A stretch of DNA of 64,000 bases from a virus, in the IMG/VR virus record IMGVR_UViG_3300037502_001683, positions 6,252 to 70,251 of that record; one strand, written 5' to 3'. The position numbers and the translations under genes were made by a program. The first letter of the stretch is position 1, and each line of letters opens with the position of its first letter. Below, one piece after another: positions 3,001 through 31,084 of this stretch. The notes below the pieces were generated by a model. That model did no database searches and was not told where the DNA came from. It was given only the letters and a program-made list of their open reading frames with translations.

Positions 3001-6000
3001 CCCAAACATACATAGACGAAATTTCTCAGCATTTTGAAAACGTCGAACGCCGCAACCAAATGATTGTGGCTACTGGCCCGATAAAAGAAATAGGATTTGC
3101 CGAAGCAGAACCAGAAATGCCATCCGAAGGAATCCCCACCTTCTCCGAGGGAAGCCCCGAAGCATCTACTCTTTCCAATATGAAGGCGTCTATGGCCAAG
3201 GTGGATGCGGCGTCCGAGGCCAAGCCAAACCCCGAAAACAAACCCACCTACAAGATCAGCGAGATAGCCTCTGTCTGGATGGATCAAGGGGGAGATGCCC
3301 GCCAACTCCAAGACCTAATCACCGAGAACACCAATCTCACGCCAGCCAACGCCAAGCGGGTAGCCAATGCCATTGCCAAACAATACGATATCCAGCAGTC
3401 TATTGCTTCGGCGTTTATCGAAACCCAGACTGGCCTTTCGGTGGAAGCTTTGCCAGAAGGCGTGACTCTTCCCAAGGAGGTTGATCCTGATCGTCCGCGC
3501 CCAGTGATGCAACGCCTATTTGATGTGTTTATGGGGGTGCGTGTTAAGCCTGTTAAAATCACAGTCAACGAGAAGACCGCGCTTAATCAGCAGATCCGCC
3601 TCAAGGCAGCGGCTACTCGCGAGGCCAAGAAAGCCCAGCAAGAAACGGCCAATGAAGTAGTGGAGATCATCAAAGCTATGGAGCTTCGCGGCCCAGTGCG
3701 CCCGAAACAAGCCCAAGCCCTTGCCAAACGCGCAGCTAAAGTTATCTGGACTAGCGAGAAATCCATCGAATCTTTCACCGACTATGCCGCAAAAGTTGTA
3801 GAGAATACAAATTACGATGCTGATCTTCGGGCGGCAAGGGATGCACAAAAACGCGCCAAGGCTTTGTCTACCCAGAAAAAGGTTGCACTGTCCCCGCAGC
3901 GTGAGGTTCTGAGCGATATCAGCAAGATCGCCGTCAATCGCATTGAAGATCCAAGGATGTTTGCAGAGATGGTGAACTACTATCTGAGAGGATTTAAAAA
4001 AGCTATATCTCCAGATTATGTAGTCGTTCCAGATGCAGAAATTCAGGGCTACCTTTCCAGCGTTAAAGACGAAGAGATTCAAAGCCAGCGCGAACTTGAC
4101 CGCGCCGTCAACCTCCGCCTTGCCGAGAAATACGGGGTCGATCCCGAAGAAGTAAATGAGGTTTTGGCGGCGTTTGACGTTATCAAGGAAATCGAAGCCA
4201 GCGAGAATCGCGAGGCCATCGACAATCTTCTGACCGAGAAAGCCATCGAAACCCGCGATGGACTCAGGGCTTATGATTCAATTCAGCTTCGACAAGACCA
4301 GCGCAAGGTTGTTGATGCCATGGCAAAAGTTGATCCAGCGGCCTTGGATGCCGAGGAGCGCCAACGTTTTATTCGTATTGCCAACAATGTGATCTTCAAC
4401 AACCAAACCAATGGCGCGGAATACTTTATGTCTGTTGCCAATGGCCAACAGAATGCCAGAAAATCGGCACAGGATAGCGAGATGATCGCCCGCAACAAAG
4501 CTTGGGTGAATCTTATTAAGACATTCGGGTCAACCAAGCTTGAAAAGGTTACCAGAAGTTGGGCGCTGGAATTGCAGTCTGTCTCAGACACATTCCGAAA
4601 TGCTTTTGGCAAAAATTCGATGGCCAAAATATATGACCTTATGGGCATGCTTGACCTCAACTCAAGCTTTACCCAAGCCAACAATACGGTTGACCAGATT
4701 CAGGAAGAGATGGCTGAGTTCCACAACAAGCTTGAGAAAGACTATGGCGCGGCGTCCCGCAACCAAGACGGCATCCTTGCCGAGGGTGTGGTTGGATTCC
4801 TGATCCAGCGTGTTCCAAAGAAGGGTGAAGCGGATTCAATTGCCCAACGCCGAGACCTGATTAGGCAGGATATTGCCAACCGCCGCGCCTCAAATGAAGG
4901 TGACCGTGTTGCCATGGCGGATCGCATTGAAGCAATTCTAAACCAGATTGACGGGGCATCTACGCAAGAGATCTTGGGCAAACTGAAACAGACTTATCCA
5001 GCTAACCACGAATCCTTGGTTTGGTATAAAGATACACTACTTCCTAAATACAAAGACTTCCTCAAAAACTTTGACGAGAACTTCAACGATCAGGCCAACA
5101 ACTACGATAATCCTGATTATCTTCCGATTGCCTTCACTTCGGCTGGGCCTTCGCTTGCTATCACCAAGGAAGAAGAACAGGTGTTCTATGATCAAGTTTC
5201 TCTAACGCCGAAACAATCCGCCAACACCATCAAGCGTGTTGATTACACAAAGATTCCAAAAGATCGCACAACCGATAAGCCCAAGGAGATTAGCTACAAC
5301 CTCCGCCGCAACGCATTCAACAGTCTTTCAGATCAGATTAACAAAGCTTATACCTCTGGAGCGTGGCAACAGATTGCCTCGTTTATGAAGACACCTGAAT
5401 CTACTCAGGTTTTTGGTGGAGATGCCAATAAGGATTTCTTTATTGAACGACTCAATCGTTTGCGTCTTTCCAGAATGCGGCGTGGGGCCATGAGTCGTGG
5501 AGCTTTTGAGAAAGCCGCCGATGCTATTGGCGTGATCTCGCGCAAACTTGGCACTGGTATTGCCCTTGGTGGTGTCTATCAGTGGATCAAGCAGCCCCCC
5601 GACCAGCTTATCACGGCTTGGGGAAGTGGTGCGCGTGGCGAAGTGTTGGCCCGAAACATTGCTCCATCTAACCAGAAAGCCGCCCGTAACCTCCTTAATA
5701 AATTCTCAATTGGACGGCGTGGTGATGCTTCCGCTGGGTACAAATATATCAATCAGATGGAAGGCCATCAAAATAGACTTGAGCGTTACTTCTCTGAAAG
5801 TAAGTGGGAACAGGCCAAGGAACAGGCTGGTAAGATTGCCGATGTCTGGATGATTGGACTCAAGAAATCTGATTTCATTGCTGCATCCGCAGCATGGATG
5901 ACTTACTACGAGACAGAACTTAACAAGAAAAATATCCAAATCGAAGATTGGAGCAAGGAAGCAGATCTCATTGATGGAGATCGGGACAGGCGGGAGGCAG

Positions 6001-28460: not shown

Positions 28461-28534
28461 CGCGGGAACAAGCCTTGGTAGGCTAACCAGTTTCATAAGC
28501 TGGGGCAATGTGAGTTCAATTCTCACTCCCGCTA
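28461..28534 (+). tRNA. Atypical tRNA with CAT anticodon (Met/fMet-like or Ile2)
   Basis: Acceptor CGCGGGA/TCCCGCT, D arm AGCC-TTGGTA-GGCT, anticodon arm CCAGT-TTCATAA-GCTGG, T arm GTGAG-TTCAATT-CTCAC, discriminator A, no encoded CCA. Confidence 0.85.
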
Positions 28535-28561
28535 CCTTTGCAAAGGTTCCACCTCAATGAC

Positions 28562-29307: not shown

Positions 29308-29820
29308 CTACCACAATCCCCGAATTTCCCTCTGACACTCTTCCTCATCCCCATAACCCGATACAATATCATCCTCTATATATTGATTATTCTGTATATT
29401 GTTATTTATGGGTATTGATAGTTCTTGTGTGGTGCAGGTTTCCTGTAGCACCACAGAACATGTAGCACCAGCTTTTGGCTTCCAGTTGGTTTTGTTGCTT
29501 CGCTGGTCTAGCGGGATCGCGTTGCTAAAAAATTCCCAGATGTTACAAAACCCTCCATCATGGCGTTCAACGCTGAATCGCGCATAACCGCTGGACTCAA
29601 TTTCCTTCATGTAGGATTTAACTTTGGTTCTTCCATCTTTATTGGAAGAGTTCACAAGATATTCACGATTAATGAACCAATCGTCTGAATTGGAAAAAAT
29701 TGTTAGTAAAAGTCCCTTGGCCCCCATAGAAAGATTGGGGTTCTTGGATATCTCGTTAGAGACAATCGTGTAGTGTTCATTTTTCTTTACTCTGTAATAA
29801 ATGGTCTTGTTTCTTGTCAT
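29308..29820 (-). CDS. Replication initiator/replisome organiser-like winged-helix protein
   Basis: YTIVSN.I.K...LS..AKGLL...S..DDW, KEIE..GY, NNNIQNN linker. Confidence 0.75.
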   Translation of the reverse strand: MTRNKTIYYRVKKNEHYTIVSNEISKNPNLSMGAKGLLLTIFSNSDDWFINREYLVNSSNKDGRTKVKSYMKEIESSGYARFSVERHDGGFCNIWEFFSNAIPLDQRSNKTNWKPKAGATCSVVLQETCTTQELSIPINNNIQNNQYIEDDIVSGYGDEEECQREIRGLW

Positions 29821-30161
29821 GGCTGGCTTCTCCAATTGGTTCGGTTGCTGCGGTTTGGTTCGGGTAATGGTGTGTCGAAAAATTTGAGGCTAGTCTTAAT
29901 CCTGCCATTTGAAGATATTTCGTAGTGGGCATATCCTGCTGCTTCAAGCTCTCTGATATATTTCTTGATCGGAAACTGGCGGTCTTTCGGGCTTGCCGCG
30001 CCAAAGTGTTCGCGATTTAGCTCAACTGATAAATCTTTATCATTCTGGATAGACAAGGCATAAGTCAAAAGCCCCTTGGCCCCGAAGCTAAGATTACTGT
30101 CTTTAAATGCCTCGCTGGACATTTCCAGATATCCTTCTTTAGTCATTGGAATAATATTCAT
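29817..30161 (-). CDS. Paralogue of the initiator winged-helix domain
   Basis: LSFGAKGLL, IRELEAAGYA, FF...P...RSNRTNW align with the next gene. Confidence 0.75.
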   Translation of the reverse strand: MNIIPMTKEGYLEMSSEAFKDSNLSFGAKGLLTYALSIQNDKDLSVELNREHFGAASPKDRQFPIKKYIRELEAAGYAHYEISSNGRIKTSLKFFDTPLPEPNRSNRTNWRSQP

Positions 30162-30169
30162 GCGGTCTA

Positions 30170-30299
30170 ATAGACACCACTTCTTGCTCTGTGTTCAAAT
30201 TATTCGATGGACGCAAGATTGTGAGATCCATGGGATTTAAGCACAGTGTTCCACGATTGTCAAAAAAAGTTTGAACATCCGCCAAACCGTGTGGTCTAT
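30170..30299. promoter_or_regulatory. Divergent pair of TGAAC-N17-GTC promoters
   Basis: Minus 30170-30198 and plus 30271-30299 both read TTTGAACA-N16-GTCTATTA. Confidence 0.8.
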
Positions 30300-30305
30300 T
30301 ACTCT

Positions 30306-30690
30306 ATGAACAACTTTGCGGGATGCATTGAGGGTGCCACTGTGAATACGGGGGCAAGCGACCTGAAATCCCGCAATTCCGAACGTTTCGATGCGCGTCT
30401 TCATGGCGCGGGAATAAACGATGAGGAAAATGCTGGGCGGTATAGCAATACGGATGAGCGCCACATCGGGAGACAGAGGTTCGGCCTTAGTCTGCGAACG
30501 GTGGGTGCCACATCGTGGTCGGGAGATAGTAAGGTTTATTGGCCCGTGTCGGCCCCTTATAATACGGCACCCCACTGCTATCGCAACCATGGAAACCCGT
30601 ATATCGGAAAGGGGATGCATACCCGTTCCCAGCAAATCTTTTTTGGAGGCGGGGAGACCCGCATGCAAATGCGAAGCTTTGCCAATCTGG
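30306..30690 (+). ncRNA. Candidate large (~380 nt) structured ncRNA
   Basis: Own promoter; many stems, two GNRA-capped hairpins and long-range pairings (see findings). Confidence 0.6.
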
Positions 30691-30730
30691 GGAGGTTGAC
30701 AAAGTGCGCCACCCCGCCTCCAATCTCTTT

Positions 30731-31084
30731 ATGAACAGACAAGACGCCATACAACTACAAATAGATGACATCATGGATACATTTGACTTCCAATGCGTTA
30801 TGAAGGTGTTGGAAGCCTATAAGTCTATGGAGCGGGGTTACCCCAAAGATTGGTTCTTCAATGATGAACCATTTGAACCCGCGATTCGAGCAGCAGCCCG
30901 TGATTGCATGAAAGCGGCGGTCAAGCACGGCTATGCTGGTCATAGCTATTTTGAGGCCCGCTTTACCGAAGGAGAAGACCATGACGGCCCGTGGGTTAAA
31001 ATTGATTTTGGCTTCGGGGATCATACCCACAATGATGGAACATCTTATGAAAAAACTACTACTACTACCCCTATTACTGAGTAA
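30731..31084 (+). CDS. Hypothetical protein (IDDIMDTFDF motif)
   Basis: ATG at 30731 downstream of a TTGACA box; protein-like composition. Confidence 0.75.
   Translation: MNRQDAIQLQIDDIMDTFDFQCVMKVLEAYKSMERGYPKDWFFNDEPFEPAIRAAARDCMKAAVKHGYAGHSYFEARFTEGEDHDGPWVKIDFGFGDHTHNDGTSYEKTTTTTPITE

Follow-up and report, generated by a model that had tools for sequence, protein, structure and literature searches.

The window analysed in this study is a stretch of 64,000 nucleotides of viral DNA that corresponds to bases 6252-70251 of a virus record 70,251 bp long; the record has direct terminal repeats and contains the stretch once. Phage proteins matched in it include a primase, a DnaB-like helicase and a terminase, and neither the spacer discussed here (blastn) nor the terminase (tblastn) found a match among cultured phages in the collection searched. 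The structured region lies inside a 540-nt gap with a leftward gene on one side and the first rightward gene on the other. The leftward gene (29817-30161, minus strand) weakly matches PHROG 4707, a replication-initiation protein (E = 1e-6), has Pfam matches below cut-off only, and returned no confirmed relatives when its protein was used as a probe. The first gene of the rightward operon (30731-31084, plus strand) encodes 117 aa of no family, with relatives that are 80-82% identical; its start, ATG 30731, is common to the relatives, an alternative in-frame GTG start lies at 30704, and a search with this downstream protein led to five related viral loci. A preliminary description of this DNA, made from the letters and their open reading frames, had placed the region next to replication initiator genes. 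Adjacent, divergently transcribed genes are indeed present, but the replication-initiator and HTH matches are weak. The tRNA nearest to the leader in the window is a tRNA-Met (CAT) at 28461-28536 on the plus strand, about 1.8 kb upstream; in the relatives L004 and L032 a tRNA-Met lies about 1.0-1.1 kb from the module called A below. Searches of the phage genome for SmpB, L7Ae and RtcB found none of the three.

A promoter-like site at 30271-30300 (plus strand) precedes the structured region and consists of TTGAAC (30271-76), an 18-nt spacer and TGG-TCTATT (30292-30300), which resembles an extended -10 box. A promoter had been proposed at this position, and TTGAAC-N17/18 with a -10-like box does recur, with its spacing fixed, in all 28 distinct leader variants, a set defined as the distinct leaders that include the promoter-like site. 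The site at 30271 is absent from the list produced by a consensus promoter scan.

A composite leader

The same early account had taken the region behind this site for one large structured non-coding RNA. Part of this stands, in that a conserved structured RNA does follow the promoter-like site and is specific to the plus strand. The single large RNA does not stand: the leaders of relatives contain instead at least three independent, exchangeable modules (A, B and C) together with a universal leader element (E), and the folded RNA is real but composite. The absence of a match to known RNA families was borne out. With Rfam 15, no family reaches the gathering threshold anywhere in the window, nothing is matched up to E = 10 in 30100-30800, and a relaxed scan of three relatives gave chance-level hits only (E 2.9-8.8). 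Folding energy on the plus strand is -146.5 kcal/mol compared with -136.9 +/- 6.7 in 100 shuffles (z = -1.42, 6 of the 100 folding as well), and z is +0.64 for the minus strand. These energies are unremarkable, and support for structure therefore rests on the comparison with relatives and not on energy.

A search pattern derived from the conserved 3' part (element E) matched 30 viral stretches. Counted from TTGAAC through the whole 3' element, the 28 leaders fall into length classes of 119-120, 185-186 and 422-489 nt, and a 702-nt leader outside these classes holds an HNH/AP2-like homing-endonuclease ORF. The units from which leaders are built are A (~63 nt), B (~54 nt), C (121-202 nt) and D (~85 nt), in addition to E and a cassette resembling the ends of tmRNA, and they are found in the builds none, A, A+C+D, A+B+C, A+B+C+D and tmRNA-like+C+D. 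The window has the order A, B, C, E, without D. Both ends of the spacer are kept in L004 and the middle is missing; B is missing in L018 and L025, follows A in L123 and precedes it in L064. These comparisons show that A, B and C fold independently, each closed by its own terminal stem, and that they are uncatalogued RNA families which recur, differently ordered and combined, in further phage lineages. The exchange of such cassettes among near-identical phages is new here.

Further units were observed. Module D (UAGCAGGAGCAGGAUGGG...GCAUUCCGC) lies between C and E in L008, L012, L018, L020, L023, L025 and L032, and the tmRNA-end look-alike replaces A and B in L023. In L022, a 138-codon ORF with HNH- and AP2-like words, recognised by eye, stands in place of A+B before C and resembles a free-standing homing endonuclease in the same hotspot. 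A GC-rich phage lineage (L044, L047, L056, L072, L079, L081, L082, L038 and L051) has additional closed RNA-like modules 200-230 nt upstream of A, which start at an ATGA overlapping the stop of the preceding gene and contain GCAGCAG..CUGCUGC in one case and UGCAGGC..GCCUGCA in another.

A single non-coding RNA of about 380-430 nt, acting as a ribozyme, scaffold or primer, would account for the continuous conserved structure behind one promoter-like site, for the lack of a known family and for the RNA-library contigs that cover B and C together. Its parts, however, occur apart and reordered: 9 of the 28 variants have no module at all, 7 have A only, and L064 has B before A. Every module has its own closing stem, and the GTTCGG/CCGAAC pseudoknot that had been suggested, which would join two modules, lacks its partner in all nine distinct relatives bearing B. 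No evidence points to either a ribozyme or a replication primer, and we regard a single large RNA as very improbable.

Module A and its distribution

Module A (30315-30377, plus strand) is closed by the stem P1, TTGCGGGAT/ATCCCGCAA (30316-24 / 30368-76), and contains the hairpin P2 (30335-56) with TGCC/GGCA (30335-38 / 30353-56) at its base. Both pairings were already in the preliminary description, about half of whose pairings are upheld, the pseudoknot and several long-range pairs being among those that are not; P1 and P2 both covary in the family. Two conserved loop strands of kink-turn-like appearance, CATTGAGGG (30326-34) and AGCGACCTGA (30357-66), complete the module on the plus strand. 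The core motif, defined as the two loop strands with a gap of 20-50 nt, occurs in at least 119 viral stretches and, among the matches listed, 77 of 87 distinct copies with flanks have at least seven contiguous P1 pairs. The same motif was found in 114 stretches of 596 Gb of bacterial and archaeal genomes, only 18 of them with a stem of at least six pairs. This total is close to chance by our own estimate and few of the copies have the stem, so that the genomes serve as a control for the viral result.

Covariation in A was assessed in a set of 55 sequences selected for stems of seven pairs or more, a choice that biases P1 and not P2. In this set 96.8% of cells are paired compared with 71.9% after shuffling and 31-43% when the strands are slid, both-side changes occur in 182 cells compared with 49 in shuffles, and all three P2 pairs covary. 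G-U pairs are plentiful on the plus strand only, in this alignment as in that of C. A covariance model of A (R1), built without the window sequence or its close kin, gave 88 matches in 100 viral loci and a single match in the window, at 30315-30377 (54.1 bits, E = 5e-13). The searches for A demanded or favoured the loop sequences, and the few copies found without the pattern vary at single positions (CA[U/C/A]UGAGGG, one CAUAGAGGG, and AGCGACCUG[A/G/U]). Tandem pairs of the module are present in L046 (3693-3891), L130 (about 1415-1530), L194 and L209. In a single full-text literature search with the two loop motifs, the matches listed were all to unrelated primers and siRNAs. The breadth of module A is new here.

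Outside leaders of the window type, A is found among tRNA genes. A tRNA lies within 500 nt in 17 of 125 A loci, and in every case it shares the strand of A. In L080, L098 and L127, with 14-21 tRNAs per array, A begins 11 nt past a tRNA-Leu; L060 has a tRNA-Thr 17 nt after A; and in L173, L211 and L213, with 10-17 tRNAs, A stands between tRNA-Lys and tRNA-Cys, where it fills a tRNA-sized slot (2524-2570, 5660-5707 and 2348-2394, respectively). Among the 18 stem-bearing loci from bacterial genomes, 11 have tRNA genes and 15 are labelled as Verrucomicrobiota-type, the labels being Opitutaceae, Oleiharenicola, Rariglobus, Ereboglobus, Opitutus, 'Akkermansia' and two broader ones; an Rfam scan of six bacterial A loci found tRNAs only. 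In the Opitutaceae-type family the A model finds the module in 8 of 41 genomes, and in a sample from across the phylum in 4 of 151, a count that includes the genome at the centre of the search and was made with stricter filters that lose weak matches. This sporadic occurrence fits mobile tRNA arrays and not a core host RNA. Clustering of the genes neighbouring 124 A loci found no protein family common across lineages. A therefore has the placement of a tRNA-array-associated small RNA in other genomes and not in the window.

Modules B and C

Module B (30377-30430, plus strand) is formed by the hairpin GCGCGTC-TTCAT-GGCGCG (30393-30410) inside an outer helix, CGTTT 30384-88 / AAACG 30416-20. It has nine distinct relatives, two of which (L037 and L085) have the outer helix changed on both sides (CGGTT/AACCG). 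Like A, it is single-copy in the window genome. Two other identities were considered and rejected. RNase P-like words (GAGGAAAA.., AACCCG..) were set aside because B is missing in relatives and the Rfam RNase P models are unmatched, and B with the sequence downstream does not make a tmRNA-like tag frame since there is no tag-like end.

Module C (30431-30634, plus strand) has a complex fold. Its closing stem, TGCTGGG/CCCAGCA (30431-37 / 30628-34), had been proposed as a long-range pairing and is supported by covariation. The inner helices are CGGTATA 30438-44 / TATATCG 30600-06, TCGTGGT 30513-19 / ACCATGG 30586-92, GATAGTA 30525-31 / TGCTATC 30576-82 and GTGTCG 30546-51 / CGGCAC 30565-70, and the module also has an optional sub-domain (about 30452-30512) and a hairpin (30611-24) with a self-complementary ATGCAT (30615-20). 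Covariation thus gives CGGTATA the partner TATATCG in place of the ATACGG/CCGTAT and CGG/CCG pairs suggested earlier, and favours GTGTCG/CGGCAC and GATAGTA/TGCTATC over the earlier GGTGCC/GGCACC and TGCGA/TCGCA. On 13 sequences, RNAalifold predicts 35 pairs in seven helices, 16 of the pairs with compensatory (both-side) change; pairing is 97.1% compared with 87.5% in shuffled and 34-45% in slid alignments, and none of 500 shuffles reached the number of covarying pairs. Relatives of C are present in several other phage lineages, mostly directly after A, so that a complex fold of about 160-205 nt is common to several of them. A BLAST search with C against 121 Opitutaceae-type genomes matched only the A part, in five genomes, apart from one 22-nt hit.

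The optional sub-domain of the window is common to L081, L089 and L070, and the hairpin at 30471-95, also seen earlier, recurs in these three with pairing-preserving changes as judged by eye. The repeated words noticed in the sequence are present as described, AATACGG three times and GCCACATCG twice. The latter forms a direct repeat (30460-30468 and 30507-30515) that flanks the sub-domain and recurs in L081, which makes the sub-domain look like a nested partial duplication of the junction ..CCACAUCG..GGGAG. The hairpin before the 3' closing strand of C contains a Watson-Crick palindrome of at least 6 nt in 8 of 11 distinct variants; four different palindromes are represented, and the expectation from shuffles is 0.20. 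A count allowing G-U pairs was dropped in favour of the Watson-Crick-only count, as shuffles reach the former 50% of the time. Since a gapless palindrome is unable to pair fully inside one hairpin, a loop-loop dimer is a fair reading of this feature and, judging from its sequence, C may pair with itself through the self-complementary loop.

The modules could also be selfish elements inserted in frame and tolerated, without function, because the frame discussed below stays open. Presence and absence differ among close relatives, insert lengths are in frame, and a homing-endonuclease-like ORF occupies the same site in L022, all as this explanation expects. Against it, the loops are the same in the recovered copies (which the searches favoured) though the stems have fully diverged, the window genome has a single copy, and C has a multi-helix fold with conserved junctions. 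Neither the single copy nor such a fold fits decaying selfish repeats, and we hold this origin to be quite unlikely.

Element E

Element E (30642-30730, plus strand) is closed by the helix TTGGAGGCGGGG (30643-54) / CCCCGCCTCCAA (30712-23) and comprises a GNRA hairpin (30661-72), a hairpin with GGGGAGG (30689-95) and the in-frame GTG at 30704. The GNRA hairpin, identified in the window as GCAT-GCAA-ATGC, is kept as GCAU-GNRA-AUGC in relatives; a second proposed tetraloop hairpin, GGG-GAGA-CCC, competes with the covarying 12-bp closing helix and is not retained. There are 34 distinct E sequences. RNAalifold on 20 of them predicts the 12-bp closing helix and two hairpins, with compensatory change in 9 of 23 predicted pairs. 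The G run of the second hairpin (GGGGAGG in the window) is followed after 5-9 nt by a start codon, AUG or GUG, whose frame is that of the next gene in most variants.

This arrangement raises the possibility of a purely cis-acting leader, in which a riboswitch, an attenuator or an antitermination RNA controls operon expression and the modules have no role in trans. The position directly after the promoter and before the first gene suits it, and so does E, a universal element whose pairing spans the start region and which has a Shine-Dalgarno-like run in the loop of a hairpin. However, presence in all orthologous leaders, as expected of an obligatory cis-acting leader, was found for E alone; A, B and C are dispensable in near-identical phages, and modules are also present in other phages and in the tRNA arrays of bacteria, at a distance from leaders of this kind. 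We consider this explanation unlikely.

An open frame through the modules

A stop-free frame, f0, runs from ATG 30306-08, 6 nt past the -10-like box and without a Shine-Dalgarno sequence, to TGA 30732-34 (plus strand), and in the window this stop overlaps the ATG of the next gene at 30731-33. In all 28 variants this ATG is 35 nt downstream of the point where TTGAAC begins. Whether the frame from 30306 is conserved was one of the points raised at the outset, and among the 19 module-bearing variants 18 are free of stops as far as E; only L022, with its endonuclease ORF, departs from this. The other two sense frames have 1-10 stops, and the probability of having no stop is 0.001-0.02 per variant in dinucleotide shuffles. 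Segment-length differences between variants are multiples of three in 11 of 13 cases, the architectures of L005 and L015 breaking phase. Among the 28 variants, f0 is in frame with the next gene in 17, ends on an E-internal start codon in 4, stops in overlap with the next ATG in 2 (window included), passes it out of frame in 3 and falls 10 nt short in a single variant; in the remaining one it is the endonuclease ORF. Of 27 variants, 23 thus have f0 joining, or stopping on, a start codon of the next cistron. This frame signal comes from the lineage of the window, whose members are related to one another. Among 94 copies of A from all lineages, frames of at least 100 codons over the module number 36 antisense and 45 sense, and antisense being about as open as sense makes the GC-rich lineages uninformative.

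The frame is kept open without a conserved protein product. Substitutions are spread over codon positions 1, 2 and 3 as 510, 585 and 614, with no synonymous bias, and variable columns as 48/112, 62/112 and 61/111, and this evenness implies no constraint on the amino acids of f0. The picture is therefore mixed with respect to the alternative of coding sequence that had been kept in mind, as both the open frame and the pairings are conserved and synonymous bias is absent. An ordinary protein-coding gene (30306-30734, 142 aa) with an incidentally structured mRNA would explain the frame being open in 18 of 19 variants, the fixed ATG and the indels that are mostly multiples of three. The substitutions speak against it, and neither purifying codon selection nor a match to a Pfam family was found for f0. 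In addition, the stems covary at the RNA level, whole modules are missing in close relatives, and A also lies between tRNA genes, an untranslated setting. We give hardly any credence to a conventional gene. An alternative is that f0 is an N-terminal extension of the next gene, as it is simply in frame with that gene in 17 of 28 variants. An open frame of this kind is new here, and its lack of amino-acid constraint raises the question of how long arrays of RNA genes are expressed within an operon.

Evidence from RNA libraries

Six RNA-library runs, five from freshwater and one labelled plainly 'metagenome', contain a small share of the words of the stretch, and four runs were compared at 85% likeness. 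Contigs of relatives were found in three of four freshwater metatranscriptome runs (X18, 30376-30526; X20, 30382-30626; X15, 30415-30619 plus others), and run X16 gave no contig at 85% likeness. The short contigs are confined to B+C and two of them begin at the border between A and B; one X15 contig is without A, and one extends upstream through the promoter. The libraries leave 30228-30279, 30332-30357 and 30670-30900 uncovered, gaps that prove nothing. Contigs have unreliable ends and the libraries may contain DNA, so that the coverage of B+C is a weak hint at a stable processed RNA.

A proposed role for the region

We propose, with a probability of about 0.5, that the region is the promoter-proximal leader of the operon turned into a rack for exchangeable stable-RNA cassettes, which is translated and processed. 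Transcription would start at or beside ATG 30306, where ribosomes would load in leaderless fashion and read the stop-free frame through the cassettes, finishing in the window on TGA 30732-34, which overlaps the start codon of the gene that follows; in most relatives reading would instead continue in phase. Passage of the ribosomes would melt E, and over about 400 nt of RNA genes it would keep expression going and guard against premature termination. Some transcripts could be cut at cassette borders in the manner of tRNA precursors to give stable small RNAs, with B+C at about 250 nt, and the released RNAs could act in trans on a conserved host factor. In module A, 19 loop bases are conserved across fully diverged stems in at least 119 viral stretches and in some bacterial tRNA arrays, and loop conservation of this kind usually marks the binding site for a universal cell component.

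A stricter version of this proposal, in which phages of this lineage keep, after an early promoter, a leaderless AUG frame that needs only to stay open while RNA genes are swapped into it in multiples of three bases and are also excised to act in trans, is in our judgement a good deal more doubtful. Its contents would be RNAs of tRNA arrays, a look-alike of the tmRNA ends and a 200-nt RNA that may pair with itself. If this version is true, the RNAs are possibly decoys for host factors involved in tRNA handling or ribosome rescue, and the arrangement would be a novel means of fitting RNA genes into a coding frame. The cassette architecture itself shows that phages trade folded RNA genes as they trade tRNAs.

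Comparison with known systems

GOLLD and ROOL are large RNAs of phages and prophages, of unknown function and with complex conserved folds, that often lie near tRNA islands and assemble via kissing loops (PMC12286853). The tRNA-island context of A and the self-complementary loop of C are points of likeness. The differences are that the Rfam models of GOLLD and ROOL are unmatched here, that the modules measure 55-205 nt as opposed to multi-pseudoknot folds of 600-800 nt, and that those in the window are exchangeable leader cassettes inside an open frame.

Bacteriophage T4 encodes species 1 and 2 (rnaC and rnaD), small stable RNAs of unknown function that are co-transcribed and processed with the phage tRNAs. 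Our comparison with them is by description only, and the window copies differ in that they are not beside tRNA genes and lie in a leader that appears translated.

Tandem sheared G.A pairs are the sequence signature of kink-turns such as Kt-7, box C/D and the U4 5' stem-loop. The sequence of A may be of similar design, reading as a stem, a bulge, G-A / G-A and a second stem beginning G-U, G-C, G-C (GAGGG/CCUGA). Unlike the signature, its bulge has 4 nt (CAUU) instead of 3, the commonest class has a U-G closing pair, and no L7Ae-family protein was found in the phage. The kink-turn G and A positions are invariant in the 55 A sequences, but the search pattern demanded them, and the key A is replaced by G or U in three copies found by the model.

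The tmRNA-end look-alike is a first cassette of 66-70 nt that comes right after the promoter-like site in L023 (about 300-375) and also in L049, L086 and L099. It reads GGGGGAGA..GGA/UUCGACG.., a T-arm-like hairpin and ..CUCCUCCA(CCA), with an acceptor stem containing G3-U70, features that by eye resemble the ends of tmRNA, and more narrowly its tRNA-like domain. It differs from tmRNA in having no tag frame and does not classify as one (no ARAGORN call, no Rfam tmRNA match up to E = 10); it is not in the window, in whose phage no SmpB was found. The cassette could be a decoy of the ribosome-rescue system. A literature search on tmRNA, SmpB and phage mimics gave nothing on point among the abstracts listed.

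Finally, Rickettsia palindromic elements are structured inserts that keep the reading frame of their host gene open. The modules described here differ from them in their conserved loops and covarying stems, in being present in one copy per genome, and in occurring also in non-coding tRNA arrays.
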